Assembly (NCBI GenBank): GCA_020057015.1
Contig: JAGVGS010000083.1
Coordinates: forward strand, 1 to 37,742
DNA: 37,742 nt
Direction: 5' to 3'
From: Candidatus Omnitrophota bacterium
GTDB lineage: Bacteria; Omnitrophota; Gorgyraeia; Aquiviventales; Aquiviventaceae
Positions 3,737 to 37,742 of this stretch are shown piece after piece. Within the stretch, counting starts at the first letter, position 1, and each line of letters starts with the position of its first letter. A program made the position numbers and the translations under genes. Under the pieces are notes generated by a model. That model did not search any database. It saw nothing but the letters and a program-made list of their open reading frames with translations, and was not told where the DNA came from.

Positions 3737-3749
3737 GCGCGGTGCGAGC

Positions 3750-6140: not shown

Positions 6141-6155
6141 CTCAAGCAGCCAAGA

Positions 6156-11807: not shown

Positions 11808-11824
11808 GACCCTGCACTGCCGGC

Positions 11825-11853
11825 TTGCGCATAGGAGACGACATCCGTAGAAT
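11825..11853 (+). promoter_or_regulatory. Candidate sigma70 promoter for the plus-strand methyltransferase (probably leaderless)
   Basis: TTGCGC (11825-11830), a 17-nt spacer, then TAGAAT (11848-11853). The ATG at 11861 follows after a 7-nt gap, inside the only divergent intergenic gap in the window. Confidence 0.6.
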
Positions 11854-11860
11854 ACCCTGT

Positions 11861-12373: not shown

Positions 12374-12764
12374 CCTCACCCGACACCGGGATGCCGCCGC
12401 GCGAGAGGACGTAGCGCCCATCCGGCCCCAGCGCGATAAGCGCCAGCGGCCGGCGCAGCAGGCGGGCCAAGAGAATCCAGCGCCGCTGAGATTTCTCATT
12501 ATCAACGAGCAAGGCGCTCAGGCGTCCGATCCCAGCCAAGTACAGCGCAAGACCCAAGACCGCGGGCACAAACCACGAGCGCGGGACATCCACGATACGA
12601 ACGCCCGCGAGGGGGCGGATCAGCGGCCGCGCGGCGCCCAGGCGTCCTTTCACGACATGGTAGCAGCCCCGGCCCTCACGGCTCAGCATGATGGAGTATT
12701 CCCGGGCCGCCCGCCACTCGCGCTCTACCAACGAAAGCACAACCTGCCTAGTGGGTGCGGTCAA
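12291..12764 (-). CDS. Hypothetical protein resembling a stand-alone GT-B N-terminal Rossmann-like domain
   Basis: TTG start at 12764 overlaps the upstream TGA (TTGA). Alternating beta/alpha pattern (VVLSLVERE...CYHVVKG...SALLVDNE). The 3' end overlaps the convergent methyltransferase. Confidence 0.55.
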   Translation of the reverse strand: MTAPTRQVVLSLVEREWRAAREYSIMLSREGRGCYHVVKGRLGAARPLIRPLAGVRIVDVPRSWFVPAVLGLALYLAGIGRLSALLVDNEKSQRRWILLARLLRRPLALIALGPDGRYVLSRGGIPVSGEAISALAVRSTNPVEETGESNAFRNGAR

Positions 12765-14843: not shown

Positions 14844-14856
14844 CGCGGATGGCTGG

Positions 14857-16140
14857 CTAGGTCAGCTGAGCTTCTACGATGGCCGCCGGGCTTGCTGAGC
14901 CAGGCTCACGCACCGCGCTGGATTCGTGCGAGCTCGACATCCGGATCCGCTCCGCCAGGCCAAGCGCCAAGCCGGCCAGCATCCAGAATAACACCGCGTG
15001 GCGCAGTGAATAGAAGTTCGTGTCGATGCCAGCTTGAGCAAGAAAACCCACGAGTCCCGCAATGAGGGCAGCCAACAACGCCCGCAATGGTCCATCCGCT
15101 GTCCGGCGCACTTCTCGGAACAAGTATAGCCCCATCTGCGCGAGTAGCCACACAAACGCCACTAACCCGATGAGGCCGGTTTCAGCCCACATCTGTAGAT
15201 AGCAATTGTGTGCGTACCGCGGCTGTTGTTCCCCCCCCACCCAGTAACGGAGGTAATTGGCCATAAAGGTGTTCAGCCCGTGGCCGACGAGGGGCCGCGT
15301 ACGGATCATGCCCCAAGCAGCTTGCCACATGAACCATCGGTCCTGCATGCCGCGATCCACCCATCTTGTGACAGTGTGCATGCCTCCCGTCGGCACGAGG
15401 ATCGCCGCACCCAAGCCGATCCCAAGCATGAGAAAGACCATGAACGGTCCGCGCAGCCATCGACTTAACCAGAAGCCGCAACCCAGCGCGATGACAAATC
15501 CTATCCACGCGCTTTGGGCTTCAGTGCGAATCAGACAACCGGCTGCGACGCCGACCACACCCCACACTCCGACACGTGGCACACTACGGACGTGACCCGT
15601 TAGGGCGATGAGGATAGGAATTGCCACGAGTAGATACGTCCCCAAATCGATCGGGTTCTTATATGGGCCTGTCATTCGCTCATAGACTATCCAGGAATAA
15701 CCCCGCAGCAATCCCCTTCCCGTGAGTTCCTGCGTGATCCCTTCGAAGGCTACCAAAAGTGTGGACCAGGCCATGAGCATCCCGCAGCGCTCGGCGACTC
15801 CTGGCCTGACACCGAGATCAGCGACCGCCATAAAGAGGAGTAGGTATTCAAGCCACTTGTTTACGAGCCCATTCAAGCTTAGAGCCTGGTCGGTGCTCAC
15901 CAAGACTGAGAACGCGAACACGCCAACGCAACCTGCCAGAGCCCATATCACGGGTCGGACCTGCGGCCGCAACCAGAGAGTTTGCCACCGTGTGCGCGGA
16001 TTGCAACGGTCGCATAGCCACCCAAGAATGAGCAGGCTGGACGAGATCTCGGCCACTGCGTTGGAAAACGGCAGGAGCAGGAAGAGGAGAAACAAAGCCA
16101 CATATTGCACAGAGGCCGAGAGGCGGCGCAGCTCGTCCAT
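14857..16140 (-). CDS. O-antigen ligase family protein (WaaL/Wzy_C)
   Basis: Many hydrophobic segments, RMTGPYKNP, DRWFMWQAAWGMI..RPLVGHG and YAHNCYLQMWAETGLIG. Start at ATG 16140 (TAATG overlap). Confidence 0.88.
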   Translation of the reverse strand: MDELRRLSASVQYVALFLLFLLLPFSNAVAEISSSLLILGWLCDRCNPRTRWQTLWLRPQVRPVIWALAGCVGVFAFSVLVSTDQALSLNGLVNKWLEYLLLFMAVADLGVRPGVAERCGMLMAWSTLLVAFEGITQELTGRGLLRGYSWIVYERMTGPYKNPIDLGTYLLVAIPILIALTGHVRSVPRVGVWGVVGVAAGCLIRTEAQSAWIGFVIALGCGFWLSRWLRGPFMVFLMLGIGLGAAILVPTGGMHTVTRWVDRGMQDRWFMWQAAWGMIRTRPLVGHGLNTFMANYLRYWVGGEQQPRYAHNCYLQMWAETGLIGLVAFVWLLAQMGLYLFREVRRTADGPLRALLAALIAGLVGFLAQAGIDTNFYSLRHAVLFWMLAGLALGLAERIRMSSSHESSAVREPGSASPAAIVEAQLT

Positions 16141-17954: not shown

Positions 17955-18982
17955 GATTTAGTTTTCCTTGCTCGTTTCCGACGAGGGGGTTCCTTGGCCG
18001 AACTCGCGGCGCCCCCTACGGGCGTCTTCCCCATGCTCCGGACGACGCTGGCGATGATTCCAGCTAAGTTCATGGTTGGCTGAAATCCGATCAGCGCGTG
18101 GATCTTGCTGATATCAGGAATGCGGCGCGGCATATCCTCATACCCTTCCTCATAGGCCTCTTCGTAGGGAAGGTGCTCGATGGAGGAGGGGCTACCGGCA
18201 ATTCGAATCACCCGTTTGGCTAATTCCTCGATGGTTACTTCCTCTTGGCTGCCGAGATTAAAGACCTGGCCTACCGCCCCGGGATGCTCCACCAGCTTTA
18301 TTAACGCATTCACCACATCGTGCACATGAAGAAAGCAGCGCGTTTGGCTGCCATCACCATGGACCTGCAGCGGTTTTCCAGCGAGTGCTTGGCTGACGAA
18401 GCGAGGGATTACCATACCATACGCGCCACTTTGCCTGGGGCCTACCGTGTTAAACAGCCGCACAATAATGGTAGGAACGCCCTTTTCCTTCCAGTACACA
18501 TGCGCGAAGATCTCGTCCACCGCTTTCGATGTGGAGTAGCTCCAGCGCGTCTTCAGCGGAGAGCCCAGCACACGGTCGGTATCCTCCCGGAGCGGGCCTT
18601 GGCTGTTCTTGCCGTAGATTTCAGACGTTGAGGTAATGAGCACCTTCTTCCGGTAGCGATGGGCCATCTCCAGCACCACTTCGCTGCCTCTAATGTTCGT
18701 CATCATTGATTCGAGCGGTTTCTTGATGATCAGCTCTACGCCGACCGCGGCCGCCAGGTGGAAGACCATGTCGCATCGCTCAACAAGTTTGTCGACGAGC
18801 GTTTCATTCAGGATGGTACCGGTGACCATCTGGAAGTCCGCGCGTCCGTCGAGGTGAGCGACGTTCTCGTACCGACCAGTAGAGAGGTTGTCCATGACGG
18901 TCACGGCGTGTCCGCATGCGAGCAGCGCCTCAGCAAGGTGAGAACCGATGAATCCCGCACCACCGGTGACGAATACCTTCAT
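17945..18982 (-). CDS. NAD-dependent nucleotide-sugar epimerase/decarboxylase (extended SDR; UXS/ArnA-C-related)
   Basis: VTGGAGFIGSH, HLAAAVGV, TSTSEIYGK, RWSYSTSK and RLFNTVGPRQ. Confidence 0.85.
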   Translation of the reverse strand: MKVFVTGGAGFIGSHLAEALLACGHAVTVMDNLSTGRYENVAHLDGRADFQMVTGTILNETLVDKLVERCDMVFHLAAAVGVELIIKKPLESMMTNIRGSEVVLEMAHRYRKKVLITSTSEIYGKNSQGPLREDTDRVLGSPLKTRWSYSTSKAVDEIFAHVYWKEKGVPTIIVRLFNTVGPRQSGAYGMVIPRFVSQALAGKPLQVHGDGSQTRCFLHVHDVVNALIKLVEHPGAVGQVFNLGSQEEVTIEELAKRVIRIAGSPSSIEHLPYEEAYEEGYEDMPRRIPDISKIHALIGFQPTMNLAGIIASVVRSMGKTPVGGAASSAKEPPRRKRARKTKSCL

Positions 18983-20253
18983 GCGACCACCTCTTGGTAA
19001 AGAACTTCCATCTCCTCGATCAGCCGACGTGTGCTATAGTGCTCTCGCACGAACGCGCGCCCCGCGCGCCCCATCGCCAGCCGCTTCTGCACGTACGTAA
19101 CCAAATACCGCAATCCTTCGTACAGCGCCTCTGCATCCGCCAACACACCGTGCTGGGTTAGCCTGAACCGACCGGGTCCGTGTTGGATGTCGCCTAGTAG
19201 ATCGCGCACGCCACCCACATCGGTCGCCAGCACTGCTCGACCGGCAGCCAGCGATTCGATGAGTGACACTGGTGTCCCTTCATTCAAAGAGGTGAGGCAC
19301 ACAATATCCAAGTTTTGATAGACGCTTGCCATCGCTGTTTGCCATCCTGTGAATGTCACGGACTCCGTGAGCCCTCTAGCCTTAACCTGCAGCTCTAGCT
19401 CTTGGCGCAACTCCCCATCCCCAACCAGGATGAACCGTAGACAACATAACTGGGGCTCATCCTTGGCGCGCGCGGCGAGCTCGAGGAACAACCCTGGGCG
19501 CTTGATGGGAACGAGCCGCCCGACAAACCCTACTGTGATGGGGGCGACATCCTCGCGCGGCAGCGGCAGTGCGAGCAGTTCATTCAGGGGTAGCCCAAGC
19601 CTGACGACGCGCAGGCGGCCTTCGCGTCCGATCTTCAGTCGGATGAGGTCTGCCCGCACGGCGGGACTCACTGCAATGATGCGGTTCGTCTGCCACCCAA
19701 GCATTCGCTCAATCCATAGAAACACCGTAGACCGCACTCGTCCAAAGTATCGCTCCAAGACGTGTCCGTGGAAGGTGTGCACTAACCGACACTCATGGAT
19801 CTGCCGACCTGTCACTGCGCGCTCCAGGCGCACCAGTTGATTGGAAAGGAGGGTGGCCGCGCGTCCTAGCGTTCCAGCCTTGGCCGTATGCGTGTGAACT
19901 ACGGCTGGGCGTTCCCGGCGAATGATGCGAAAGAGCTGCCACCATGCATGCAGATCGCGCCATGGACGTATGGGCCGGCGCAACGAAGTCAATCGGACGT
20001 GCCTTACTCTGGTGCCGGTTAGGAGCCCGCTAAGATCTCCTTCGCTCGATTCGGGCTGGCCGGTGATCAGCAGAGACTGGAACGCTCCGCCGTTCAGCTG
20101 GGATGCCAGCGTGATGACGTGCTGCGCTGTTCCGCCCACATTGAGTCTGGTGATGACCTGCAGGATGGTTATCGCGCCAGTCATTGGTTCACGGGTGCGT
20201 GCCGACATATTCGCAGATCGCGGGCTGGCGACGAACGTCGGTGCGGCGCTCAT
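18979..20253 (-). CDS. Glycosyltransferase family 4
   Basis: ITRLNVGG, HTHTAKAG, VGRLVPIK and SLNEGTPVSLIESLAAG. Confidence 0.9.
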   Translation of the reverse strand: MSAAPTFVASPRSANMSARTREPMTGAITILQVITRLNVGGTAQHVITLASQLNGGAFQSLLITGQPESSEGDLSGLLTGTRVRHVRLTSLRRPIRPWRDLHAWWQLFRIIRRERPAVVHTHTAKAGTLGRAATLLSNQLVRLERAVTGRQIHECRLVHTFHGHVLERYFGRVRSTVFLWIERMLGWQTNRIIAVSPAVRADLIRLKIGREGRLRVVRLGLPLNELLALPLPREDVAPITVGFVGRLVPIKRPGLFLELAARAKDEPQLCCLRFILVGDGELRQELELQVKARGLTESVTFTGWQTAMASVYQNLDIVCLTSLNEGTPVSLIESLAAGRAVLATDVGGVRDLLGDIQHGPGRFRLTQHGVLADAEALYEGLRYLVTYVQKRLAMGRAGRAFVREHYSTRRLIEEMEVLYQEVVA

Positions 20254-21509: not shown

Positions 21510-22955
21510 TCACTCATGCGTCACCTGGCTGGCGTGCGCTTCCTGACTGGACCTGCAAAGACGCACTCGATCTAGGAATGCGACAAGACCAGCGCAACCC
21601 AACATCACCAGCACCATTAGGTAAGGGTACCTAAATCGATAGATGGCACCCATGTTGGTCGTCACGAAGCCATACATGATCAAGAAACCCAGACAACACA
21701 CGACGAGTGTCCAGAACTGCGTACATCTGCGCCACACCCACATGGCGTACGGGAGAAAGTACAGCGCCAAATACACACCGAGCATTTCCATCGCCGCCAC
21801 CCGGCGCATCAGGGTGTTCTGCGGAATCCGTCCCGGCTTGACCCAGTCCCTCGGAAACGGCGAAAACAAGGCGATCTGCGCGGCCCGCGGCAAGTAGCCA
21901 AGCATCTCCCCTGCGCTGTGCAACGCGATCTCGGTATCGATGTTGCTGGTGGCAGTCGGGTAACTGACGCGGAACCAATCCCGCGCGAGCGCCAACGCGC
22001 TGAGCTTGTCCTCGATCCGCGCCGGCAGGATTCCAGAGGCTCTCCAATACGGCTGGGACGGCGCCACCAGCGCAGGTGGAGTTGTAACCGTTGGATCTGG
22101 CAGCTCGACCTCAGTTACTTGAGGGGATGCCTTGACGTGCTGCAAGATATGAAACCGCCGATCCTGGATCTTGGTCAAAGAGCCCAGGCTGATACTCATA
22201 ACCCCAACACATATCACCGCTATGACGTTCCAGTGCCATTTCGCCTTTCTCTGCACCACCCAAATTAGCCAGCGGAGTACGGCATATGTACCGACGAGAA
22301 CCAGCGCCACTTGCAAGAGGTGCACTACGTACGGGCGAGCGATCGACACCAGCACAGATCCCAAGACCACCCACCCTACTGCACGAATCGGTCCCCATGC
22401 CGTTCGCTGCCAGGTGCCGGCGGCCGACAACTGGGCCAATCCGTAGAGCGCAACCATCACGCCGGTCGTCGCAAAGACCTCCTTATGTAGTTGTGCATAC
22501 CAGCTCATCGCCGATGGCCACATCATGTACGGCACGACGCACCATAAGGCCTGCTGTTGGGTTCTCACGAAGGGCCGGATGATGCGCAGGGCCATCGCGG
22601 TTCCAGTCGCATGTAGTGCCGCATTGAGGGGGATCACCGCCCAGGGTGTAGGCCAAATCAACGCGTAGAATACGGCAAAGACCCCCGCGCCGGACATGCC
22701 GTGTGGGCGCAGCTCCCATCGTCCCCACCCAAACTGTAAGATCTCGTTAGCAAGTTCAAGCGTCCGGCTATGATACGGTAACCAGTCTCCTCCTAACAAC
22801 AACCCGCCACCCCCGTGCCAAGCGGAAAACACGTAGGGAAGTAGAAAAAGCTGGACTAGAAACCCTATGGCCGCGGTGTAGGCGAAGACGATCAACCATA
22901 GCTGCAGTTCCGAAACCGCGGACGATCTCTGAGCCACTCCGATCGCGCGGGTCAT
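21510..22955 (-). CDS. Polytopic membrane protein, possible Wzy-like polymerase / GT-C enzyme
   Basis: Many hydrophobic segments, GDWLPYH, QLHKE, FSPFP and C-terminal NMGAIYRFR. Located between glycosyltransferase genes. Confidence 0.55.
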   Translation of the reverse strand: MTRAIGVAQRSSAVSELQLWLIVFAYTAAIGFLVQLFLLPYVFSAWHGGGGLLLGGDWLPYHSRTLELANEILQFGWGRWELRPHGMSGAGVFAVFYALIWPTPWAVIPLNAALHATGTAMALRIIRPFVRTQQQALWCVVPYMMWPSAMSWYAQLHKEVFATTGVMVALYGLAQLSAAGTWQRTAWGPIRAVGWVVLGSVLVSIARPYVVHLLQVALVLVGTYAVLRWLIWVVQRKAKWHWNVIAVICVGVMSISLGSLTKIQDRRFHILQHVKASPQVTEVELPDPTVTTPPALVAPSQPYWRASGILPARIEDKLSALALARDWFRVSYPTATSNIDTEIALHSAGEMLGYLPRAAQIALFSPFPRDWVKPGRIPQNTLMRRVAAMEMLGVYLALYFLPYAMWVWRRCTQFWTLVVCCLGFLIMYGFVTTNMGAIYRFRYPYLMVLVMLGCAGLVAFLDRVRLCRSSQEAHASQVTHE

Positions 22956-27552: not shown

Positions 27553-29457
27553 CTAGGCTTCGCACCGTAACAGGACTTTGAGCGGCTTGCGGCTCTTAAC
27601 GAGATCCCAAGCTTGCGCATACTGTTCCAGCGGCAAGACGTGCTCTAGCAAGGGTGTCACCGGCAGCTGCGGCAGCAGATGAATCGCCGCCACCATATCA
27701 GCCGCACTGCTTCCCACCGATCCGATCACCATCTTATCGTAGGCCACCACTTGCTCGAATGAGAACTCGCGCTTCCCGTAAGGCAAACCCAGCAACAAGA
27801 GGACTGCCCCCGGGCGGCTACTGCACAGCAGCGTCTCCAGTGCGTTCGGATCGCCCGTCGCCTCGACCAGGACATCAAAGGTATGTAAGCCGCTGGGAGA
27901 ACCCGTCTGAGCCGGTGTGATGCGCGGCTGATGGAAGGCATTGAGCCGATCCGGATTTCGGTCAAACACCGTCACCTCATGGCCTTGATGGGCTAGGACT
28001 TGCGCACACAGATACCCGAGCGGACCTGCACCGACCACTCCGCACCACCGGATACTACCGCTCTTGCAGACCTGCCCGAGCCGTCTGAGGCCCTTGAGGA
28101 CGACAGCCACTGGCTCGCAGAGCACTGCTGTCTTTAAATCAAGGGTCTCGGGCAACTTATGCACGAACCGGCCGGGAATAACGACGTACTCGGCGTACGC
28201 ACCGTCCTTGCCCAGGACGCCAAGCTCCCGTCTCTGGTTGCAGCTAATACCGTTGTCTTGTTTGCATGCATTACACTCCCCGCAACCCTGGATGCACTCG
28301 GCCACCACAAGATCGCCAGGTTGAAGATGCTGAACGTTTGGACCTACCGTCACCACCGTACCAGAAAATTCGTGTCCCGGCACAATCGGGTAAACCGCAC
28401 GTCCGGTCCTGTAGTAGTCCAGCGTGCCATGGAATACTTCCAAATCCGTTGCGCACACACCCACGTATGCCGTTCGAATGAGCACATCGCCCGGTTTGAT
28501 CTCCGGCAAGTCACGCTCGTCCAACGCGGCATGGGAGGCTCTGTGGACTACCACCGCACGATAGGTGCGATCAAAGAAGACAGCGTCACGTTTGCGAGGA
28601 TCCTGCATGACCGCCCCGTCAGCTAGACCGTGGATCGTGCCCAGTACCTTGCGCATTCTAAACATAGCGATGTCGTGTGCCTCAGCACGCAGTCGCCCTT
28701 GGCGGCCGGCCTCCACCAGGTCCCCGAGAAATCGCGTGCTCTCTCGCGCCATCTCAAGCGGGATATGCCGCCGTCCTTTCAGTCCCATCCACTTCGCGGC
28801 CATGGCTTCTCTGTAGTAACGTCGCCGTATTTGGCGCCACGTCTCCTGATGAATGTGGTAGACCGCGGCGTTCGGCTCGTAGAAGATCTGCTGGCCGCGC
28901 GCCACCCAGTACCGAGCCCACTCAATGTCTTCCAAACCTGGCAATGCCTCGTCGAACGGATGCTTATCCCAAAGCTCTCGTCGAATGGCCGAGTTCGCGT
29001 TGTTGGCGAAGCACGCCTCAATGGTAAGAAGCCTTGGCTCTGGCCCGAACGTCCGATTGAAATCCTGCCCTTCTGAAAAGTTCGACTCAGGGGCCCCCAC
29101 CTGCCGTCCGTACACCATCGCCGTGTCCCGCTGACGCAACGGCTCAATAAGTTTCTCCAACCAGTGGGCGTCCAGCGGCTTGGTATGAGCTGAGACGATG
29201 GTAAGGAAATGGCCCAAGCTGTGGCGGATACCAACATTAAGTGAGTACCCGAACGTAAAGTCCCGGCTGGCAATGCGGATCAGCTTCGCGCCAAAGCGCT
29301 CGACGATCTCAGGTGTTCGATCGTACGAACCGGAATCCACCACGAGGATCTCAAAGGATTGGTACGCTTGCGCCCGAATCGCCTCCAGGAGCCCTGGCAG
29401 GCAACGCTCTTCATTGAATGCTCGAATGATGATGGAGCTCTCAACCGTCCGGCTCAT
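27553..29457 (-). CDS. Fusion of GT2 glycosyltransferase (N-terminal) and Zn-dependent medium-chain dehydrogenase (C-terminal)
   Basis: N-terminal IIIRAFNEE, VVDSGSYDRT, NANSAIRR and LEDIEWA. C-terminal GVCATD, GHEFSG, CGECNAC-x7-C, GAGPLG and EATG. One continuous frame. Confidence 0.88.
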   Translation of the reverse strand: MSRTVESSIIIRAFNEERCLPGLLEAIRAQAYQSFEILVVDSGSYDRTPEIVERFGAKLIRIASRDFTFGYSLNVGIRHSLGHFLTIVSAHTKPLDAHWLEKLIEPLRQRDTAMVYGRQVGAPESNFSEGQDFNRTFGPEPRLLTIEACFANNANSAIRRELWDKHPFDEALPGLEDIEWARYWVARGQQIFYEPNAAVYHIHQETWRQIRRRYYREAMAAKWMGLKGRRHIPLEMARESTRFLGDLVEAGRQGRLRAEAHDIAMFRMRKVLGTIHGLADGAVMQDPRKRDAVFFDRTYRAVVVHRASHAALDERDLPEIKPGDVLIRTAYVGVCATDLEVFHGTLDYYRTGRAVYPIVPGHEFSGTVVTVGPNVQHLQPGDLVVAECIQGCGECNACKQDNGISCNQRRELGVLGKDGAYAEYVVIPGRFVHKLPETLDLKTAVLCEPVAVVLKGLRRLGQVCKSGSIRWCGVVGAGPLGYLCAQVLAHQGHEVTVFDRNPDRLNAFHQPRITPAQTGSPSGLHTFDVLVEATGDPNALETLLCSSRPGAVLLLLGLPYGKREFSFEQVVAYDKMVIGSVGSSAADMVAAIHLLPQLPVTPLLEHVLPLEQYAQAWDLVKSRKPLKVLLRCEA

Positions 29458-30458
29458 CGCACGATCGAACGTGCCTGCTTCGACGCTTGCGTGGACGATG
29501 ATTCTTCCAGACCGGCAATGAGGTTGTGAATCGTCTGCTCATGGACTCGCTCAACTGCCTCCACCGTGTTATAGGCGTTGTGGGGGGCGAGGAGCACGTT
29601 TGGAAATCGGCGCAATGGGCTCGTTGCCGGCAGCGGCTCATCTTCGAAGACGTCCAGCGCGGCCCCGGCGATCCGGCGCTGCTCCAATGCTTCTCCCAGT
29701 GCTCGTTCATCCACAATTGGCCCGCGGGCCGTATTGATCAGCACGGCGGTTGGCTTCATAGCGCGCAGTTGATATTCTCCAATAAGGTGAAAGCTTGTTG
29801 GATTCAGGTCGCAGTTAAGGCTGACGTAGTCTGACTGGCACAGGAGCTCATCTAGCTGCACCATCGTTAGCCCCATCTCCTGGCAAAATGACCTGTCGAT
29901 CTCTCGGATATCCCGCCCCAGCAGACGCAAGCCGAAAGGCCGTGCCCGTTGCACCACTTCCCGCCCGATATCTCCAATCCCGATAACGCCGAGGGTCTTC
30001 CCCCGCAGGCTTACGCCTGGAAGTTGCTCCCATTTGCCCTGCCGCATGAGCGCATCGACCTGATGCACCGGCCGCGCGAAACAGAGGAGATAGGCCATGA
30101 CGACATCGGCCGCGGCATCGCTGAAGGCGCCCGGACTGTTACAAACGCGGATCCCGCGACGTCTGGCTGCCTCTCGGTCAATGGCGTCCACCCCAACCCC
30201 CCACTTGGAAATCACTTTTAGTCGCGTGGCGCGCGCCATGATCGGCTCTGTAATCGGATCATCGCTGCAGACGACTCCGTCCACGGTTTCGTCCATGAAT
30301 GTGAGCATTTCTGATTCCGAAAACCGGTGCCCCCCCTCTGGGACAATTACTTCAATCTTCCGCTCCGCCAGCAGCGGGAGAAAACGCGGCAGGATACGGC
30401 GAATGTGGACTGATGCGATGAGCACTCGCCACCGGGCGGGCGGCGTTACGCCTGCCAT
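29454..30458 (-). CDS. D-isomer-specific 2-hydroxyacid dehydrogenase (SerA-like, no ACT domain)
   Basis: KWGVGVDAID, GVIGIGDIG, INTARGPIVDE, LDVFEDEP and APHNA. Confidence 0.88.
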   Translation of the reverse strand: MAGVTPPARWRVLIASVHIRRILPRFLPLLAERKIEVIVPEGGHRFSESEMLTFMDETVDGVVCSDDPITEPIMARATRLKVISKWGVGVDAIDREAARRRGIRVCNSPGAFSDAAADVVMAYLLCFARPVHQVDALMRQGKWEQLPGVSLRGKTLGVIGIGDIGREVVQRARPFGLRLLGRDIREIDRSFCQEMGLTMVQLDELLCQSDYVSLNCDLNPTSFHLIGEYQLRAMKPTAVLINTARGPIVDERALGEALEQRRIAGAALDVFEDEPLPATSPLRRFPNVLLAPHNAYNTVEAVERVHEQTIHNLIAGLEESSSTQASKQARSIVR

Positions 30459-31231
30459 CGGGACTTCGCAGCCTCCAGGTACTGCGGCACAAGCGGATCG
30501 TCTGTCAGGGCTTGCTCAACCCGTCGCACATCGTTGGGTACGTCCACGCTGATCGTTGGACGGTCGACGGCAAATGTGTGAATCTTGTAGCCGTGTTCTA
30601 GAATGCGCAGGATATCGACTGACTCGGCCTGTTCCAGTGGCGTCTGCGCAAGGCACGTGTAAGTCTGGAGGAAGTCACGGCGGAAACTCAGCACGACGAC
30701 AAGTTGGCGCTTCTGGATGCCTGATTCACCCAACCGCACGGTAGTCGGAATAGGTTCCCGTGACATGAAGAGGACTGCACCCTGTTGGTCGGTCACCACT
30801 TTGATGACGTTGCGGTTGCGGAATGTCTCGCCATCCTCGATGGGAGCAAGGGGGTGAGCGCACACCACAGCCGGGTCTTCCGCGAGCATCCGGACTCCGC
30901 CGTTCACGAGTTCCGGGTACAGCATGGGCTCATCACCCTGGATATTGACGACGACGTCGGCCGCCTCGTGGATTGCCGCCGCCGCCTCCGCGACCCGGTC
31001 CGTGCACCGCTCATGATTGGGCGATGTCATAATGACCGGCGCGCCGTAGCTCTCCACTACATCGCGGATTGCAGGATCCGGTGTGGTGACATATACCGCG
31101 TCTAGCGTCTTGCACAACCGTGCGCGGAAGTAGACGTGGAGAACCATTGGTAGTCCCAGTATCGGCACGAGCGGCTTGCCTGGAAACCGTGAGGAACCCA
31201 TGCGCGCTGGAATGAGACCGATGGCTCTCAT
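30446..31231 (-). CDS. KdsB-like CMP-ulosonate synthetase (cytidylyltransferase), divergent paralog
   Basis: IPARMGSSRFPGKPL, NIQGDEP, NVIKVV, MSREPIP, LEQAESVDILR and SVDVPND. Confidence 0.85.
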   Translation of the reverse strand: MRAIGLIPARMGSSRFPGKPLVPILGLPMVLHVYFRARLCKTLDAVYVTTPDPAIRDVVESYGAPVIMTSPNHERCTDRVAEAAAAIHEAADVVVNIQGDEPMLYPELVNGGVRMLAEDPAVVCAHPLAPIEDGETFRNRNVIKVVTDQQGAVLFMSREPIPTTVRLGESGIQKRQLVVVLSFRRDFLQTYTCLAQTPLEQAESVDILRILEHGYKIHTFAVDRPTISVDVPNDVRRVEQALTDDPLVPQYLEAAKSRWQA

Positions 31232-32292
31232 CGACGGCCTCTCACGCCACTCATCGTGTGGCCGCGCCTGGTAGCCGCTCGCCTCCTGGCGATGCGTACG
31301 TCCTTCACTTCGCGGGGTGCGCCGCCCAGCAGCGTGCGCAGGTAGTCCGCACTAGCCTGCCATTCCTTTTCTTCATATTCCACGACGTTCCTCGGGGCTT
31401 GTCCGCACTCATGCGGTGTACGATAGTCCTGACCTGTAGGCTGAGCGTGCTCCAGCACAAATTTCATGACCTCGGCAACCTGCGCGGCCGGCCGTGCAGG
31501 GTACTCTGGCCAGAAGTCCGATTCCAGCATTCGGACGTGCCTGGCCTCCAACGCGCCAATCTCGAGGCTGGCCCACTCTGCGCGACCGTGCCGCTCGAGC
31601 AGCCCTATAAGCTCCGGGAACGGTATGACCCCGTGACCGACCGGACAGCGTACCAAACGGTAGCCGGACTCGCTCAGGAAAATTCGATAGTCTTTCAGGT
31701 GGACGTGCTTGATGAAGGGTGCGATCCGCTCGGCAAAGGCGAGTGGCAACTCCACAACGGAGAGCGCATTCGCCGTGTCCAACGTTACCCCGAACCATGG
31801 GCTATTAATCGTCTCGCACAGCCAGACCAACTCCTCGGAAGTGAGGTCCTGGTGGTTCTCGACCGCAAGTGGAATGTTCTGCCGCTCGGCCTCTCGCACC
31901 GCCCGAGCTAAGCGGTCCCTAACGGTCTCGAGAAATGACTTCCAGGTCCCGATGAACTCCCGCCGGTCCCCTCCAAATTTCGCACCGCCTACGACCGTTC
32001 GCACCACCGCGCATTCCATCACCCCCGCCGCCTGCAAAGTTCGGATGAGACGACCCGGGTCGACTCCCTCCGTCGAAAGCACCATCCGTAGCTGGTGCTC
32101 ACGGGCAACATCTCTGAGCATGATCCAGTGTCGCTCGTCTTGGAGGTCCACGAGGGCCGCCGGCAGCTCTACACCTGGGAATCCTCGCGAAGCCGCCTCT
32201 CGAATCACCGCCTCAGCGCTGCGGCGCTCAGCCCCTTCAGGCAGCCAACCGAACGTATAGAGCGAGCCGTAGATATTGAAAAGCAGCTTCAT
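31228..32292 (-). CDS. Xylose-isomerase-like TIM-barrel (AP endonuclease 2 family) sugar isomerase/epimerase or decarboxylase
   Basis: Metal-ligand pattern VENHQD, LDTAN, HVHLKDY and SLE, plus GHGVIPF. Confidence 0.75.
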   Translation of the reverse strand: MKLLFNIYGSLYTFGWLPEGAERRSAEAVIREAASRGFPGVELPAALVDLQDERHWIMLRDVAREHQLRMVLSTEGVDPGRLIRTLQAAGVMECAVVRTVVGGAKFGGDRREFIGTWKSFLETVRDRLARAVREAERQNIPLAVENHQDLTSEELVWLCETINSPWFGVTLDTANALSVVELPLAFAERIAPFIKHVHLKDYRIFLSESGYRLVRCPVGHGVIPFPELIGLLERHGRAEWASLEIGALEARHVRMLESDFWPEYPARPAAQVAEVMKFVLEHAQPTGQDYRTPHECGQAPRNVVEYEEKEWQASADYLRTLLGGAPREVKDVRIARRRAATRRGHTMSGVRGRR

Positions 32293-33107
32293 GGCGCTTT
32301 TACTGAGTCCAGCAGTTCTTTGGTGGCTCGCTCGTACGCTACGTGCGGCATCTGCACGGAGAACTTGCCCCCGCTGATATCAATGTGCGCCCCTGTAATA
32401 TAGCCGGACAGCTCACTCGACAGGAAGACCACCAAATTCGCAATGTCACTGGCCTGCCCCCAGCGCCGCAACGCGAGCGTGTTCAGGAGCCGTTCTTGGG
32501 TTTCGGGCGGCGCTTCGGCGAAGTGGTTGAGTTGGGTGGGAATCATACCCGGCGCGTAAGAGTTAACCGTGATGTTATAAGGGCCAAGTTCGGCGGCCAG
32601 CACTCGGGTTAGCGAAACAACCCCGGCCTTGGAGGCAGCGTAGGCTGAGAAACCCGCTGAGGGTACAATCGCCGCGAAGGAGGACGCATTGATGATCCGG
32701 CCTGAGCACTGCCGCTTCATGATCGGAATGACGGCCTGACTACAAAGAAAAACTCCTTTCAGATTCACATCGAGGTTATCATCCCAGGCGCGTTCATCGA
32801 ACGACTCGACGAATCCGCTCGGGGCGACTCCAGCGTTGTTCATGAGAATATCAAGACGCCCATAGCGTTCCGCCACAGTGCTCGTCATCTGGCGCACATC
32901 GTTGCGTACACGGACATCGCAGCGGAGTCCCTGGCCTTCAAGTTTTCGGCTCTGGAATTCTGCCTGTAGCCCCTTAGCGAGAGTCTCGTCAATATCCACT
33001 CCAATCACGACGACCCCTTCCTCCGCTAGCGTCAAGGCAATCACACGACCGATGCCCTGACCCGCACCGGTTACAATCGCGACTTTCCCGTGTAGGTCAA
33101 TCTGCAT
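32289..33107 (-). CDS. Classical short-chain dehydrogenase/reductase
   Basis: VTGAGQGIG, NNAG, YAASK and VNSYAPG. AGGAG Shine-Dalgarno upstream. Confidence 0.9.
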   Translation of the reverse strand: MQIDLHGKVAIVTGAGQGIGRVIALTLAEEGVVVIGVDIDETLAKGLQAEFQSRKLEGQGLRCDVRVRNDVRQMTSTVAERYGRLDILMNNAGVAPSGFVESFDERAWDDNLDVNLKGVFLCSQAVIPIMKRQCSGRIINASSFAAIVPSAGFSAYAASKAGVVSLTRVLAAELGPYNITVNSYAPGMIPTQLNHFAEAPPETQERLLNTLALRRWGQASDIANLVVFLSSELSGYITGAHIDISGGKFSVQMPHVAYERATKELLDSVKAP

Positions 33108-33114
33108 AGCTACA

Positions 33115-33119
33115 CTCCT
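33115..33119 (-). promoter_or_regulatory. Shine-Dalgarno sequence for the SDR starting at 33107
   Basis: AGGAG 7 nt upstream of the ATG, in a short intergenic gap. Confidence 0.6.
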
Positions 33120-33131
33120 GTTGCACTCCGC

Positions 33132-33875
33132 TTAGGGCATCCATAATCCGCCATTCACCGGAATCGTCACTCCGGTCATGTATGCACTTTCCTCCGAGGC
33201 AAGGAAGGCTACGGCCTTTGCCACCTCCTCGGGCATGCCGAGACGGCCTAACGGAACTCGTTGCACCAACGCACGCAGTGCCCGGCGAGGAAATGCACGC
33301 GCCATGTCGGTGTCGATAATACCAGGAGCCACACAATTGACTCGAATCCTAGAGCTGGCCAGTTCCTTGGCTAAATATTTTGTGAGACAAATAAGCCCGG
33401 CCTTCGACACGGCGTAATGCGCTCCCACAAAAGCACCCCCGGTCTGGCCGGCCTGGGAAGCGATCATCACAATACTTCCACACCGCTGGGATGTCATGAT
33501 GGGTGCGACCCGTTGGCAGCACAAAAATGCCCCACGCAGATTGACTGCCAGCACTGTATCCCATTCAGCCACGCGAAGGCGCTGAAACGGCGTGACAGAG
33601 GCGATTCCTGCATTATTGACGAGCACATCGATCCGTCCCCAACGATGTTTGACCTGTGCAACCAGCCGTGCCACTGCCTCCGGACGTGCGACATCTGTCT
33701 GAATCGTCACCACATCTCGGCCAAGAGCCCGGATGCACTGTGCCACTGCTCTGGCCTCATGCGCCAGGCTGCGGTACGTAATGGCAACATCAAACCCGAC
33801 TTCCGCTAGCCGGATGGCACACGCGCGCCCGATCCCGCGAGAACCTCCAGTCACCAAGGCAACCCTGTTCCTCAT
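33132..33875 (-). CDS. Classical SDR, FabG-like
   Basis: VTGGSRGIG, NNAG, YAVSK, VAPGIIDTDM and VNGGL. Start reassigned to ATG 33875 (ATGA overlap). Confidence 0.9.
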   Translation of the reverse strand: MRNRVALVTGGSRGIGRACAIRLAEVGFDVAITYRSLAHEARAVAQCIRALGRDVVTIQTDVARPEAVARLVAQVKHRWGRIDVLVNNAGIASVTPFQRLRVAEWDTVLAVNLRGAFLCCQRVAPIMTSQRCGSIVMIASQAGQTGGAFVGAHYAVSKAGLICLTKYLAKELASSRIRVNCVAPGIIDTDMARAFPRRALRALVQRVPLGRLGMPEEVAKAVAFLASEESAYMTGVTIPVNGGLWMP

Positions 33876-34843
33876 GTGAGCGACGCCATCACCTCGCACT
33901 CGAGGGAAGCTCTAGGAGCCAACTGCCCGCACGTACCCTGCCGCTGAGCCTGACGCAAATCTTTTGGGATGTTTGTGCATGGCTCCAGGACCACCGTATA
34001 GTGGCTGCGCCAGCCACCCAGTGCCATGAAGATCCACACGTAAGGAAACACGCGCATGGGAAAGTTGAGGGTGAAGCGCGCACCGGTGACGCCATCCTCC
34101 ACCCCGCACCACCCAGAAGGAAGTCCGTCGACGTACACAAACTCCTGATGGCGGCTTTCGACCGGCGGCAGGCGGCTCAAATCCCATAGTGTTCCGGATG
34201 GTCCAGGAACGTGTGGCCAGGAAGCAGGTCCCGGCTGGCTCATGATGGTGCTGAATGTCGGATCGACCTGCATTACGCGCCCTCCTGGCAAAAGCACCCG
34301 GTCCTGTGGCCGCACAGCCAGCGCTGGATGGAGCTTGAACAAAAATACCTGCGGCTCATCCGTCAGGTTCGTAATGCGATACCGTATCTTCACCACCGCC
34401 TCGTCATCGAGAAGCTCCACCCATTTCTCGTAGCGGAGCGGTAGCGCACGACCGGAGCACCATAACCGAATCCCTGTGCAGTTCGACCCTGGCAGTTGTT
34501 CATACGCCCACGCCTGAGACCACCACTCGCCGTGATCAGGAAGCGCGCGTCCGTTGAACTCACCAGCGGCATCGTTCGGAAATAGCTCCTCCCAACCTCC
34601 CCCCCAGTTGTCGTCATAGGAGGCACCGTAGTCAACCCGGCGCAATCCCACTTGGGCGTCTCGCCACAACCATTCCTTGCCCGTAGGCTTGTGCAGAAAA
34701 CTCCAGATCTTGCCGCCGAGTTCCGGCACCACCTGGATGGCGGTCAGCTTATGCTCCAGTCGAATGGTTTCGAACCCATCTACCCACGCGCGGGTCACAC
34801 GTGCGCGGCAACTCGATTGGGTGCTGGATGGCGCGTCAGGCAT
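33872..34843 (-). CDS. Galactose mutarotase-like (aldose 1-epimerase fold) protein
   Basis: VVPELGGKIWS, GGWEELFP, PDHGEWW, HPAL and LEPCT; beta-rich. Start reassigned to ATG 34843. Confidence 0.75.
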   Translation of the reverse strand: MPDAPSSTQSSCRARVTRAWVDGFETIRLEHKLTAIQVVPELGGKIWSFLHKPTGKEWLWRDAQVGLRRVDYGASYDDNWGGGWEELFPNDAAGEFNGRALPDHGEWWSQAWAYEQLPGSNCTGIRLWCSGRALPLRYEKWVELLDDEAVVKIRYRITNLTDEPQVFLFKLHPALAVRPQDRVLLPGGRVMQVDPTFSTIMSQPGPASWPHVPGPSGTLWDLSRLPPVESRHQEFVYVDGLPSGWCGVEDGVTGARFTLNFPMRVFPYVWIFMALGGWRSHYTVVLEPCTNIPKDLRQAQRQGTCGQLAPRASLECEVMASLT

Positions 34844-35747
34844 TAGTGCTGGTCGCCTTAGGTCTCGATCTCTCGAGCTCGCAGTCCTCACCCGAGATCG
34901 AATCCAGCCTCCCTAAACCGTTGCTCGCTATACGGTAGGCCGCCACCTTCCAGCATTCATGAAGCCTGGCGCAGTGCTTGTCACAGAGTAGCTTCACTGC
35001 CTGGATGTCGGGCCAGTGATGATCGTCCAGCATCATAACGCTGTTGGAGTGGAGCAGTCCGCAGGATAGGCCGAAATCGAGCAGCGGATTCAACCCCTCA
35101 TGCGAGCCGTCGATGTAGATGAGGTGAAATCGCCGGCCCGCCTGGTGCAGCGCCCGCAGTCCATCGAGGCTGATCATCTCGAGCAGCTCGACCTCAAGAC
35201 CCACCGATTGGTAGAGGCTGAGGGCGAGCTGTCTTGTGCGTTTTGTAATACCGACATGGATGCCCTTTTCCCAGATTCCTTTTGACCCCTCGAAGTAACC
35301 CATATCGAAGTACGGGTCAATGGAGGTGAGCTGGCCAAGCGCGCCCCGCGCCCTCAGCAGGAGACCGATGACGCTCATCGAAAGACCTTGAGCCGAACCG
35401 ATCTCCAGAAAATCCACTGTTCCGAACCGCTCGGCCACATCCAACACGGCGCGTTCAAACGTCTCGACAACCTCCCGCCGCAGCGCATTGCTGTAGAAGT
35501 TCCATCCATGCTGCTCTCCCTGGTGGATTGTCTGAGCATTACCCTGGACGGTCTGGATGGCTTCTTCTGAAAACGGCGCCAGCTTTACAGACGAATAATC
35601 GAGCCCCTTTAACCGCAACAGCTCCCGCTGTCCAGCATCACGCAGAAGCTGCATCTGGACTGCGTGCTTGAGCTTAGTTGATAGCGCGCCGAACCATGAC
35701 GGCGGCGTCTCAGAATTGCGGCAGCGGGCCAACAGCGGATGGCTCAT
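34836..35747 (-). CDS. Class I SAM-dependent methyltransferase (Methyltransf_24-like)
   Basis: FLEIGSAQGLS, SIDPY, HLIYIDGSH and LDDHHW. Start at ATG 35747 (ATGA overlap). Confidence 0.8.
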   Translation of the reverse strand: MSHPLLARCRNSETPPSWFGALSTKLKHAVQMQLLRDAGQRELLRLKGLDYSSVKLAPFSEEAIQTVQGNAQTIHQGEQHGWNFYSNALRREVVETFERAVLDVAERFGTVDFLEIGSAQGLSMSVIGLLLRARGALGQLTSIDPYFDMGYFEGSKGIWEKGIHVGITKRTRQLALSLYQSVGLEVELLEMISLDGLRALHQAGRRFHLIYIDGSHEGLNPLLDFGLSCGLLHSNSVMMLDDHHWPDIQAVKLLCDKHCARLHECWKVAAYRIASNGLGRLDSISGEDCELERSRPKATSTNA

Positions 35748-37742
35748 AAAGCGTTTGTCCACACCTTGTCACTGCCCCATTGCTGCTGGTACGTTTCAAC
35801 GGCCGCGCGCAGCGCGACCTCACGCGTCAGGCCCTGCTCGCACGCCTCGAGAAACCATCGGACGAACATCCCAATGCGTCGGGCTGCCTGCCCATCGCGA
35901 AAGGGGTCCAAGTGGGAGAGCATTGTTGATAGATCTCCCACACTGCCTTGCGCTCCACCGGAGACAAAGAACTGCTCGACGGCCTGCCTCAACTGCTCTA
36001 ACTCCGTAAACATGACTTTTGGATTATCCCACTTGGTACTAGCGAACCAATCCTTCATAGGCCCTTCGGTCACCCTGGCAGGATCCCAGAACACCGTCCG
36101 GGCTCCAGCGAGCGCCGCCACGACTCCGCCAGAATTGTACCCTAAGGCCACCACCAGATCAGACGCCCGCGCAGCCTCGTGAACAGAACGATGTCCTTCC
36201 AGTAGGACTGCGCGCCCTTCAGCCATGAGCGCCTGGAGGCGCGCCAAGAATCCCGGGGTGGAGGCAAAGATCTTCGGGGTCGGATGCTTCGGTTTGATGA
36301 GCAATCCGATGCGGGGGTTGGCCTCGGCCCACGTCAACATCGCGTCGTAGAACTGGCGGTGCTGAGTTGAGGAATAGTGGCTCGCCAGGCCTAGCGATCG
36401 ATCGAGGACACCGATCACGCGTGTCGTCTCGCCAAAGCACCGCCGCATCGAGGCGACGCCCTGACTGGTCACCGGTCCGTCCGACAGATGATGAAAGATG
36501 CACCCTGTTTGCAAAATCACTTCCGCGCAGCTGCCCCAGCGATCCGAGACAATGGCTTGGTGCTGGGGCCCCCAGACCCCATAGACCTGGTGTAATGGTA
36601 AGAGCGCCCCACTGGTCGGGTACAGTTGACTCCAGTGGTACCCGAGGCGAATCGCCCCCACAAGATCCGCAGCCAGCGACATCGCGTCAAGGTTCGTCTC
36701 TTCCACACTAAACAGCACTTTGATATGCTCCGCTTCCATAAGCGCCTGCCACCGACGCAGGTGTCCTACCACGTGTGCACATCGAGCGACGTGCCATGCA
36801 GGCGCCATGCTCCGGGGAGCCTTGAGCAGCAGGCGCATCAGCCAGAGTCCGTCGAAGACGGTTCTGCTGATGGGTTGGGCCGGAAAACCCGCGGTGGGCG
36901 TTGTGGCGCTCGCATTCGCATCAGCATAAAGAATCCGGTATCGATAGCCGCCTCGTTGTAAGTGGTCGATGGCCTCATCCGTCGCCTGAGAACGAGCGCG
37001 GTCAAAAAAGATCAGGCATCGCGCAGGAGGCAGTCCGGAAGCGGCATACCACCATAAATCGTTTAATCGATCGGCCTCGCTGCCGAATCCCCACGCGTAT
37101 TCGAGGGCTACCGTCGCAGGCTTCACGGCGGCAACGGAGAGGCCAAACGTCCCCCACGCCTTCAGGCGCTGAGTCACCTGCCACAAGAGATAGAAGCACA
37201 ACCGAGCCACCCTAACCAAGGAGGACGTCCGAACATCGGCATAGCCAAGGAACTGGATCTGGACCGCTGGGCTGAACGATGTCCGAACTGCGTCAGTCAG
37301 GGCAGGGGCTAAGTCGGCCACGTTGGCTAGGACCAGCACCTGTGGCGCTCCGGAAAACAGCTGGCCCTGTTGCTGCGCAAGCAGCCCGAGCAGGATCGGG
37401 TCATAGATCTCCCGCTGCACGAGCTTGCGCCAGAACGCCCGCAGTCGTTGCGGTGCAATCCCGGCTGCAAACTGGGCGAATAAGAACCCCTCCGCTTCCA
37501 GTCGCTGGACCAGGGTGCACCCAACCTGCTGTACGGTGAGCTGTAACCAGTCATAGAGTGAACCCGCAGCGGGCATCTGGCTCGTGAGATCCGGCTCGAG
37601 CCGCTCGACATCGTGGCAGAGCTGCAACCACCGGATGAGGTGCAACCATCGCTCGCCCCAGCAGCCGCTCCGTAGGATCCGGATGGCTGTGACGCGATAG
37701 CGAAGTGACAGCCGCCAGAGCCGCAGACCTGAACAGAAGTTC
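35744..37742 (-). CDS. Large surface-carbohydrate biosynthesis protein with GT-B-like C-terminus; candidate CMP-ulosonate transferase (5'-truncated)
   Basis: The frame stays open upstream of TTG 37645 to the window edge. GYHWS, YGVWG, LLIKPKHP, SDLVVALGYNS and LDPFRDGQAARRI motifs resemble GT-B nucleotide-binding halves. Confidence 0.55.
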   Translation of the reverse strand, partial: NFCSGLRLWRLSLRYRVTAIRILRSGCWGERWLHLIRWLQLCHDVERLEPDLTSQMPAAGSLYDWLQLTVQQVGCTLVQRLEAEGFLFAQFAAGIAPQRLRAFWRKLVQREIYDPILLGLLAQQQGQLFSGAPQVLVLANVADLAPALTDAVRTSFSPAVQIQFLGYADVRTSSLVRVARLCFYLLWQVTQRLKAWGTFGLSVAAVKPATVALEYAWGFGSEADRLNDLWWYAASGLPPARCLIFFDRARSQATDEAIDHLQRGGYRYRILYADANASATTPTAGFPAQPISRTVFDGLWLMRLLLKAPRSMAPAWHVARCAHVVGHLRRWQALMEAEHIKVLFSVEETNLDAMSLAADLVGAIRLGYHWSQLYPTSGALLPLHQVYGVWGPQHQAIVSDRWGSCAEVILQTGCIFHHLSDGPVTSQGVASMRRCFGETTRVIGVLDRSLGLASHYSSTQHRQFYDAMLTWAEANPRIGLLIKPKHPTPKIFASTPGFLARLQALMAEGRAVLLEGHRSVHEAARASDLVVALGYNSGGVVAALAGARTVFWDPARVTEGPMKDWFASTKWDNPKVMFTELEQLRQAVEQFFVSGGAQGSVGDLSTMLSHLDPFRDGQAARRIGMFVRWFLEACEQGLTREVALRAAVETYQQQWGSDKVWTNAL

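Follow-up and report, generated by a model that had tools for sequence, protein, structure and literature searches.

A KdsB-like cytidylyltransferase in a redox-enzyme operon of an Omnitrophota glycan locus: a candidate oxidative route to a CMP-activated sugar acid

Key sugars of cell surfaces include the cytidine monophosphate (CMP)-activated ulosonic acids, among them 3-deoxy-manno-octulosonic acid (Kdo) and the sialic, legionaminic and pseudaminic acids; all those known to us are built by phosphoenolpyruvate (PEP)-dependent synthases. In Shewanella, Kdo8N is obtained by oxidising free Kdo before CMP activation, with the dehydrogenase KdnB and the aminotransferase KdnA acting ahead of KdsB. 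The locus described here lies on a complete 37,742-bp contig of a Candidatus Omnitrophota bacterium (JAGVGS010000083.1; contig C149 of a genome bin of 1.73 Mb in 223 contigs, 73.6% complete), hereafter the window. At the promoter-proximal end of its glycan gene array, an operon (positions 27553-37742) carries a KdsB-like cytidylyltransferase gene among genes for dehydrogenases and a TIM-barrel enzyme. It is tentatively read, with a confidence somewhat short of even, as making, CMP-activating and transferring a non-Kdo 2-keto (ulosonic) sugar acid by aldose oxidation, within a lipopolysaccharide (LPS) core/O-antigen locus. CMP-activated ulosonic acid pathways are known as a kind; what the window adds is a branch without a visible C-C bond-forming enzyme.

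The operon and its KdsB-like cytidylyltransferase

Domains were assigned with Pfam, over the 29 window proteins scanned, and with NCBIfam. Nearly all window genes lie on the minus strand, and the operon comprises nine of them, co-directional and mostly overlapping. An earlier reading made from the DNA letters (the sequence-only reading) had named eight contiguous genes, most of them overlapping, preceded by a large GT-B-like gene with a KHP motif, and this gene order and the overlaps were borne out by the open reading frames (ORFs), Pfam and NCBIfam. In transcription order, the genes are as follows.

35744-37741, minus strand: large GT-B-fold protein, 665-codon open frame, candidate transferase for the CMP-activated sugar
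34836-35762, minus strand: S-adenosylmethionine (SAM)-dependent methyltransferase (Methyltransf_24, Pfam E 7.8e-11)
33872-34891, minus strand: mutarotase-like protein (DUF5107, Pfam E 2e-7)
33132-33899, minus strand: first classical short-chain dehydrogenase/reductase (SDR 1; adh_short_C2, E 8.5e-72)
32289-33107, minus strand: second classical SDR (SDR 2; adh_short_C2, E 5.3e-61)
31228-32292, minus strand: xylose-isomerase-like TIM barrel (AP_endonuc_2, PF01261, E 3.5e-26)
30446-31231, minus strand: KdsB-like cytidylyltransferase (CTP_transf_3, PF02348, E 2.2e-45)
29454-30458, minus strand: D-isomer-specific 2-hydroxyacid dehydrogenase (2-Hacid_dh_C, E 5.7e-57)
27553-29457, minus strand: fusion of a family 2 glycosyltransferase (GT2) and a Zn-dependent medium-chain dehydrogenase, 634 amino acids (aa) (Glycos_transf_2, residues 8-162; ADH_N/ADH_zinc_N, residues 321-619)

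Neighbouring genes overlap at seven of the eight junctions (4 to 56 bases). In order, the first three overlaps measure 19, 56 and 28 bases; then come a 24-base gap between the two SDR genes and overlaps of 4, 4, 13 and 4 bases, the 13-base one joining the KdsB-like gene to the 2-hydroxyacid dehydrogenase gene directly downstream. The next gene, for a family 4 glycosyltransferase (GT4), follows the operon after a 6-base gap. As promoter-like and terminator-like sites in the window did not rise above the shuffled expectation, a single long operon fits this layout.

In the KdsB-like protein, which is small (261 aa) and soluble, the CTP_transf_3 domain spans residues 4-217 and profile positions 1-217 of 217. 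The protein exceeded the cut-off of the subfamily model PRK13368 (265.6 bits, cut-off 255), passed PRK05450.1-5 as well, and fell below the KdsB equivalog cut-offs (TIGR00466, 150.8 vs 155.2 bits; NF003948, 159.4 vs 281). Its best PDB match was the E. coli capsule enzyme KpsU (1GQ9, E 3.2e-43). Because a housekeeping KdsA (2968-3729; 367 bits, cut-off 314) and a canonical housekeeping KdsB (5498-6127) were found on contig C156 of the same genome, the window enzyme is an accessory paralogue and not the housekeeping enzyme, a distinction that the sequence-only reading had left to be drawn.

Residue conservation was examined in an alignment of 280 rows, made up of the window protein, the genome's own housekeeping copy, E. 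coli K-12 KdsB (NC_000913), 119 database matches and 158 proteins from fetched loci. The window protein keeps every one of the cytidine triphosphate (CTP)/Mg residues R10, R15, K19, Q98, D100, E101, R157, R213 and D235 (E. coli numbering), which vary little or not at all across the three signature classes of the alignment. The window protein differs from E. coli KdsB by H181L, G183V, Y185L, E210D and Q211I. At positions 181/183/185/210/211 it thereby reads LVLDI, while the signature HGYEQ is found in 111 of the 280 rows, including E. coli and the genome's own housekeeping copy; in the 115 canonical rows, H, G, Y and E are each present in all 115 and Q in 111. Both His181 and Tyr185 are absent from 136 of the 280 rows, among which QCIDM is the commonest signature (76 rows). 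According to the part of the source available, a 3K8D-based model has the C5 hydroxyl of Kdo bound by Tyr185 and Gln98; the same source places His181 in the active site and takes its protonation to be important (PMC12199768). Judged from its sequence, the KdsB-like protein is a KdsB paralogue with intact catalytic residues and replaced sugar-contacting residues.

The clade of the KdsB-like enzyme and its gene neighbourhoods

A phylogeny, proposed with the sequence-only reading as the means of placing this enzyme, set it in a clade of its own with a remodelled sugar pocket. In a tree of 75 rows (IQ-TREE quick search), a split with 98% support in the Shimodaira-Hasegawa-like approximate likelihood ratio test (SH-aLRT, the only support measure used) separated 33 rows on the canonical side from the 42 rows of the window clade. 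Eight rows, the window among them, form a group (100%) whose sister is a group of six rows that includes the Methanoperedens locus L013, and a 14-row clade (100%) unites the two; with long branches and a quick search method, the finer structure calls for caution. The nearest named relatives come from Methanoperedens (two genomes, 55% and 48% identity), Chloroflexota (one genome, 51%) and Dehalococcoidales (one genome, 48%). KdsA exceeded its cut-off in none of these four genomes, and the window clade is independent of KdsA.

Companion genes were counted within 8 kb of the cytidylyltransferase gene, at loci flanked by 6 kb of DNA or more. A 2-hydroxyacid dehydrogenase gene was present at 9 of the 12 window-clade loci, compared with 3 of 85 canonical loci and none of 14 loci with the intermediate signature. 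HpcH aldolase genes were found at 6 of the 12 window-clade loci and at none of the 85 canonical or 14 intermediate-signature loci. These counts are not independent events, since the loci are related to one another.

The same results bear on a more conventional explanation, namely that the window encodes a second, KpsU-like CMP-Kdo synthetase for O-antigen or capsule Kdo, the neighbouring oxidoreductases modifying unrelated sugars of the same glycan. Such an enzyme would account for KpsU being the best PDB match, for the subfamily models passed being named '3-deoxy-manno-octulosonate cytidylyltransferase', for the presence of every catalytic residue, and for the heptosyltransferases and O-antigen ligase of the locus; it would also suit the occurrence of the GT2/dehydrogenase fusion elsewhere without a KdsB-like gene. 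It is nevertheless considered improbable, as H181, G183, Y185, E210 and Q211, (near-)invariant in the canonical rows, are all replaced in the window, the equivalog TIGR00466 stays below its cut-off, the clade occurs in Methanoperedens and Dehalococcoidia genomes that have no KdsA, and the link to 2-hydroxyacid dehydrogenase genes is strong.

The third KdsB-like signature class keeps Tyr185 and has Gln at position 181 (QCYEI, 17 rows; QGYEM, 6 rows; loci L060, L074, L079, L092, L130, L140-L143, L165-L171; L070, L071, L078, L082, L136). It comes from Bacillota, gut metagenomes and Magnetospirillum/Hyphomicrobiales, lies on the canonical side of the tree, and has neither a 2-hydroxyacid dehydrogenase nor an HpcH gene near any of its 14 loci with enough flank. 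In another Omnitrophota metagenome-assembled genome, locus L017 (= L101) carries a KdsB-like gene (10001-10756) with signature MFVEY that is a basal member of the His181-less clade. An HpcH-like gene near 5726, 34% identical to the aldolase of locus L015, lies 4 kb upstream of it, and no 2-hydroxyacid dehydrogenase gene was found within 8 kb.

Five loci of the clade (L014, L015, L028, L093, L097) share an aldolase-type architecture, in which the KdsB-like gene stands with genes for an HpcH aldolase, methyltransferases, a 2-hydroxyacid dehydrogenase, an HAD protein and an NAD-epimerase. A cyclase-family gene is added in L028 and L097, and the methyltransferases of L028 include a B12-radical SAM enzyme. 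The aldolase most resembles YfaU, which acts on 2-keto-3-deoxy sugars (E 7.6e-46). Pfam scans of the window proteins found no HAD phosphatase and no cyclase family, both of which are represented in L013, L015 and L028.

On the window's own branch, L013 has an SDR gene directly upstream of the KdsB-like gene, together with genes for a Zn-dependent alcohol dehydrogenase, a TIM barrel and two 2-hydroxyacid dehydrogenases, and further for an epimerase, an HAD protein, a cyclase and a 615-aa protein with a faint DUF6716 match. Its SDR is 49% identical to the window's first SDR and its KdsB-like protein 54% identical to that of the window. No aldolase gene was found within 10 kb on either side of this cassette, and its genome (G401) gave no HpcH match, compared with one in each of three aldolase-type genomes.

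At a metagenome locus (L099), the gene order of the window recurs for a mutarotase-like protein (43% identity), a 2-hydroxyacid dehydrogenase (48%) and the fusion (50%); a divergent KdsB-like gene (46%) and genes for a flippase and a large DUF6716-like protein adjoin them. The closest relatives of the cytidylyltransferase are 56-70% identical, and their gene content was deduced from equal contig sizes across three match lists, not from sequence: an 11,752-bp contig would hold the KdsB-like gene (63%), the TIM barrel (55%) and the fusion (60%), a 4,057-bp contig the KdsB-like gene and the TIM barrel, and eight more contigs, including one of 17,213 bp, the KdsB-like gene and the fusion. The relatives fetched from metagenome and genome scans are 55% identical or less. 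The recurrence of the gene set, on which the sequence-only reading depended, is seen for parts of it (L099, L013 and the inferred metagenome contigs), and comparative support from close relatives is thin. The patchy spread of the cassette across domains may point to transfer.

The Methanoperedens cassettes are flanked by genes for IS21-type transposases (IstB, rve integrase) and B12-binding radical SAM enzymes (L013:253-2272; L013:2760-4154; L013:18856-20241; L028:11567-13099), a setting in which the cassettes may be mobile and the sugar may be C-methylated. The pairing of B12-radical SAM enzymes with a cytidylyltransferase in L013 and L028 also raised phosphonate-type chemistry as a candidate; it was set aside, as the aldolase is strongly HpcH/YfaU-like and no PEP mutase was seen. 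In the Dehalococcoidales locus L015, a 466-aa protein that joins a GT2 domain to a partial CTP_transf_3 domain (L015:5964-7364) is encoded upstream of the aldolase cassette.

Proposed route and competing explanations

In the proposed route, the mutarotase-like protein would handle a free aldose, which an SDR or the Zn-dependent dehydrogenase would convert to the aldonate by oxidation; the 2-hydroxyacid dehydrogenase would next oxidise C2 to give the 2-keto-aldonate. The metal-dependent TIM barrel and the second SDR would then epimerise or isomerise the molecule beside the keto group, the KdsB-like enzyme would join its anomeric hydroxyl to CMP, and the large GT-B-fold protein or the GT2 domain would transfer it to the glycan, with O-methylation by the methyltransferase. 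As proposed, this sequence of steps would need no C-C bond-forming synthase.

A precedent for the oxidative steps exists in catabolism, where the aldonate 2-dehydrogenases Ltn2D, Den2D and Rib2D yield a 2-oxo acid that is then taken over by the isomerases OtnI and OrnI; in the available part of that source, the SDR-like Ltn3D belongs to the same acid-sugar pathways, and SDR-type dehydrogenases act on free sugar acids (PMC13753588).

Among the window enzymes, the label "mutarotase-like" is based on the DUF5107 match and on resembling ESM Atlas clusters annotated DUF4432, DUF5107 and Aldose_epim; a PDB sequence search with this protein gave no match. SDR 1 exceeded two cut-offs, those of FabG NF009466 (259.6 bits, cut-off 222) and of glucose 1-dehydrogenase NF005559 (228.1 bits, cut-off 215), and its best PDB matches are FabG enzymes, while SDR 2 exceeded the NF005559 cut-off (217.8 bits, cut-off 215). 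The best PDB matches of the 2-hydroxyacid dehydrogenase are phosphoglycerate dehydrogenase 1wwk, glyoxylate/hydroxypyruvate reductases and the probable 2-ketogluconate reductase 9m0t; its proposed role is to generate, or else to reduce, a 2-keto group on a sugar acid.

The TIM barrel was modelled with AlphaFold2 at a mean predicted local distance difference test (pLDDT) score of 91.1. Foldseek matched the model to the isomerase Art22, L-xylulose-5-phosphate 3-epimerase UlaE, IolI, ketose 3-epimerases and the 2-hydroxy-3-keto-glucal hydratase AtHYD, with query-based TM-scores (TMq) of 0.5-0.6 and a probability of 1.00 to UlaE, IolI and the ketose 3-epimerases. Art22 was also its sole PDB sequence match, and a literature search on Art22 returned unrelated papers only. 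Residues E145, D172, H198 and E244, which we take to be metal ligands as in the family at large, are invariant in 60 homologues. Homologues 45-50% identical are common in Paenibacillus. The protein is possibly an epimerase, isomerase or decarboxylase acting beside a carbonyl.

Candidate transferases stand at both ends of the operon. The large GT-B protein, whose gene comes first and, truncated at the contig end, is short of some 20 N-terminal codons, had no Pfam match and only a weak PFTS_polysacc match (TIGR04417, 29.7 bits, cut-off 100); it contains a KPKHP motif. It has 1207 homologues at E <= 0.001, most of them 600-700 aa long and with N-termini 45-55 residues longer. Its look-alikes in the ESM Atlas are annotated PFTS_polysacc, Glyphos_transf and Capsule_synth, in clusters commonest in Omnitrophota. 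A PDB sequence search returned nothing meaningful; with an AlphaFold2 model (pLDDT 94.0, 70-row alignment), Foldseek returned UDP-GlcNAc 2-epimerases, the CDP-alditol polymerases TagF/TarL and PimB' (probability 1.00, TMq 0.3-0.4). The first gene product is thus predicted by its model, at modest TM-scores, to be a GT-B-type protein. The methyltransferase encoded next may O-methylate the sugar or the glycan, a role inferred from its position only.

In the fusion protein, the Zn-dependent part best matches L-threonine 3-dehydrogenase, ketose reductase and sorbitol dehydrogenase in the PDB. The family is widespread in glycan loci, with 1347 homologues at E <= 1e-30, mostly 631-669 aa long and often named BchC by JGI. 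A fusion 51% identical to that of the window was found in one genome of a 401-genome Thermodesulfobacteriota sample (G465:C9:709051-710928, L185-L187), and none in two further Thermodesulfobacteriota/Deltaproteobacteria genomes. The polysaccharide locus around the G465 gene is a different one, with epimerase-like, WecA-like and Wzy_C-like neighbours and no cytidylyltransferase gene.

In its strictest form, the oxidative reading would amount to a third, condensation-free route, common to an Omnitrophota bacterium and Methanoperedens archaea, in which an aldose or aldonate oxidised at C2 and epimerised at C3 gives a hexulosonic-type acid that a re-tooled KdsB activates directly, no PEP-dependent synthase (KdsA/NeuB) or pyruvate aldolase taking part. 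This form is rather doubtful. The claim made by the sequence-only reading, that a CMP-activated keto-sugar acid is built here by redox and isomerase steps, is supported in part: the accessory, remodelled KdsB-like enzyme and the KdsA-less genomes of its nearest named relatives speak for it, and the building of the skeleton by redox and isomerase steps alone stays a proposal.

A number of observations weigh against the oxidative reading. The sister branch of the window clade uses an HpcH aldolase, one of the enzymes that the sequence-only reading had listed to be looked for beyond position 37742, and since the 2-hydroxyacid dehydrogenase is kept even beside that aldolase, it need not be the enzyme that creates the 2-keto group. 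PF03328 (HpcH) was absent from the Pfam matches of the scanned window proteins and had no match in the assembly, an absence that is weak evidence because the assembly is only 73.6% complete. As the assembled sequence stops within the first gene, about 20 codons short of its start, an upstream synthase or aldolase gene is possible; neither an overlap with the contig ends nor the missing N-terminus of the first gene was found on any other contig of the assembly, and no public sequencing runs were listed for window positions 33742-37742. The genome could also supply a precursor through KdsA and three NeuB genes. The latter are NeuB-type matches on contig C119 (1475-2191, 19539-20261 and 20572-21249), which also carries NeuA-like PF02348 matches (2794-3773 and 18672-19295), and the genome probably makes one or two nonulosonic acids as well, to judge by these genes. 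In G401, a NeuB gene lies on contig number C2, possibly the contig of L013, about 36 kb away.

The individual enzymes raise further objections. The TIM barrels of the window and L013 are not detectably orthologous (no tblastn match at E 1e-5), the Zn-dependent dehydrogenase parts are only 26% identical, and JGI names some relatives of the TIM barrel "3-oxoisoapionate decarboxylase". The fusion is not specific to this pathway, given that the 32-kb region around it in G465 contains no KdsB-like, 2-hydroxyacid dehydrogenase or mutarotase-like gene. Neither the TIM barrel nor the fusion had a match in 400 other Omnitrophota genomes, and the cassette is therefore rare in Omnitrophota.

Several of these points would be explained if the operon tailored an ulosonic acid made elsewhere. 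Free Kdo, an acid made by NeuB or one made by an aldolase whose gene lies past the contig end could be the starting material, to be epimerised, oxidised or methylated by the dehydrogenases, the TIM barrel and the methyltransferase and then activated by the specialised KdsB-like enzyme. The KdsA and NeuB genes, the contig end inside the first gene and the pairing of an aldolase with the same kind of 2-hydroxyacid dehydrogenase on the sister branch all fit such tailoring, and the hydrophobic pocket of the window enzyme (L, V, L, I) might suit a deoxy or methylated sugar. The oxidation of free Kdo on the way to Kdo8N in Shewanella offers a parallel. It is harder to reconcile with the nearest named cytidylyltransferase relatives, whose genomes lack KdsA in all four cases and, in G401, HpcH too. 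In addition, a mutarotase-like protein and glucose-1-dehydrogenase-like SDRs suit free aldoses better than a keto acid, and HpcH was not found in the incomplete assembly. Tailoring is the main rival, held to be unlikely yet far from negligible.

The substrate might also not be a sugar at all. A small 2-hydroxy or 2-keto acid, or a cyclitol-derived acid, activated with CMP as a non-sugar glycan decoration, would agree with the proximity of the 2-hydroxyacid dehydrogenase to phosphoglycerate dehydrogenase and glyoxylate/hydroxypyruvate reductases, with the likeness of the Zn-dependent part to threonine, inosose and sorbitol dehydrogenases, and with the weak matches of the TIM barrel to IolE and IolI. 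Yet the solved PF02348 relatives returned are all named for 2-keto sugar acids (KdsB, KpsU, NeuA), the CTP/Mg residues are unchanged, and the partner on the sister branch is a YfaU-like 2-keto-3-deoxy-sugar aldolase, so a non-sugar substrate appears very improbable. The oxidative route to a non-Kdo sugar acid is retained as the preferred, tentative reading.

Surrounding locus, implications and described systems

Downstream of the operon, the window region at 6.1-27.5 kb is an LPS/O-antigen locus, with the following genes.

6.1-27.5 kb: GDP-mannose-dehydratase-type epimerases; GT2 and GT4 transferases; methyltransferases
6.1-27.5 kb: two family 9 (GT9) heptosyltransferases; a Wzy_C O-antigen ligase; a WecA-like GT4/PglD_N protein

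Two minus-strand ORFs of this locus, at 21510-22955 (481 aa) and 12291-12878 (195 aa), matched no Pfam family at E <= 0.001. The G+C content falls from 0.61-0.67 in window positions 1-15000, which include priA, the uracil-DNA glycosylase gene and the first glycan genes, to 0.57-0.62 in 15000-37742; a drop of this kind is usual for surface-glycan islands.

The aldolase-less branch is common to the window and to an archaeon, the Methanoperedens of L013, whose genome has neither KdsA nor HpcH. The large uncharacterised KdsB-like clade with one altered pocket makes up 136 of the 280 rows and is found in organisms unable to make Kdo, which suggests that bacteria and archaea have acidic surface sugars as yet unknown. 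If the oxidative reading is true, catabolic-type sugar-acid enzymes have been recruited into glycan biosynthesis, and they would offer new enzymes for CMP-sugar making and new markers for the glycan loci of uncultured microbes. Were the condensation-free route true, a new class of acidic sugar would be present in LPS and in archaeal surface glycans.

Literature searches, with supplementary files outside their scope, found no published pathway for either the aldolase-based or the aldolase-less gene set, and the match to a characterised pathway that would have undone the sequence-only reading did not appear; a Bacillus coahuilensis paper describes an ordinary Kdo island and not this gene set. 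With the canonical CMP-Kdo pathway (KdsD, KdsA, KdsC, KdsB; KpsU), the window shares a PF02348 enzyme with all CTP/Mg residues and a surface-glycan setting. Its operon differs in having no KdsA, KdsC or KdsD, which lie elsewhere, in the replacement of H181, Y185 and E210/Q211, and in the separate clade of its cytidylyltransferase. Unlike the Kdo8N tailoring of Shewanella, it includes no aminotransferase, and its change extends to the cytidylyltransferase. To go by a title alone (Dengler et al. 1988), a 4-deoxy-2-hexulosonic acid reportedly occurs in the E. coli K3 capsule; it would be a six-carbon 2-ulosonic acid in a bacterial surface glycan, with no known link to this gene set.

The catabolic pathways of the Ltn2D/OtnI type, as far as the available part of their description goes, are likened to the window by reaction logic alone; they lead to kinases, decarboxylases and central metabolism, whereas the window enzymes lead to a cytidylyltransferase and glycosyltransferases. 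With the aldolase-type cassettes (L014, L015, L028, L093, L097), the window has in common the KdsB-like clade, the companion 2-hydroxyacid dehydrogenase and the placement in glycan loci. It departs from them in having no aldolase, HAD or cyclase gene, and in having instead the mutarotase-like protein, the two SDRs, the TIM barrel and the GT2/Zn-dependent dehydrogenase fusion; its cytidylyltransferase belongs to the sister sub-clade, together with that of the aldolase-less Methanoperedens locus L013.

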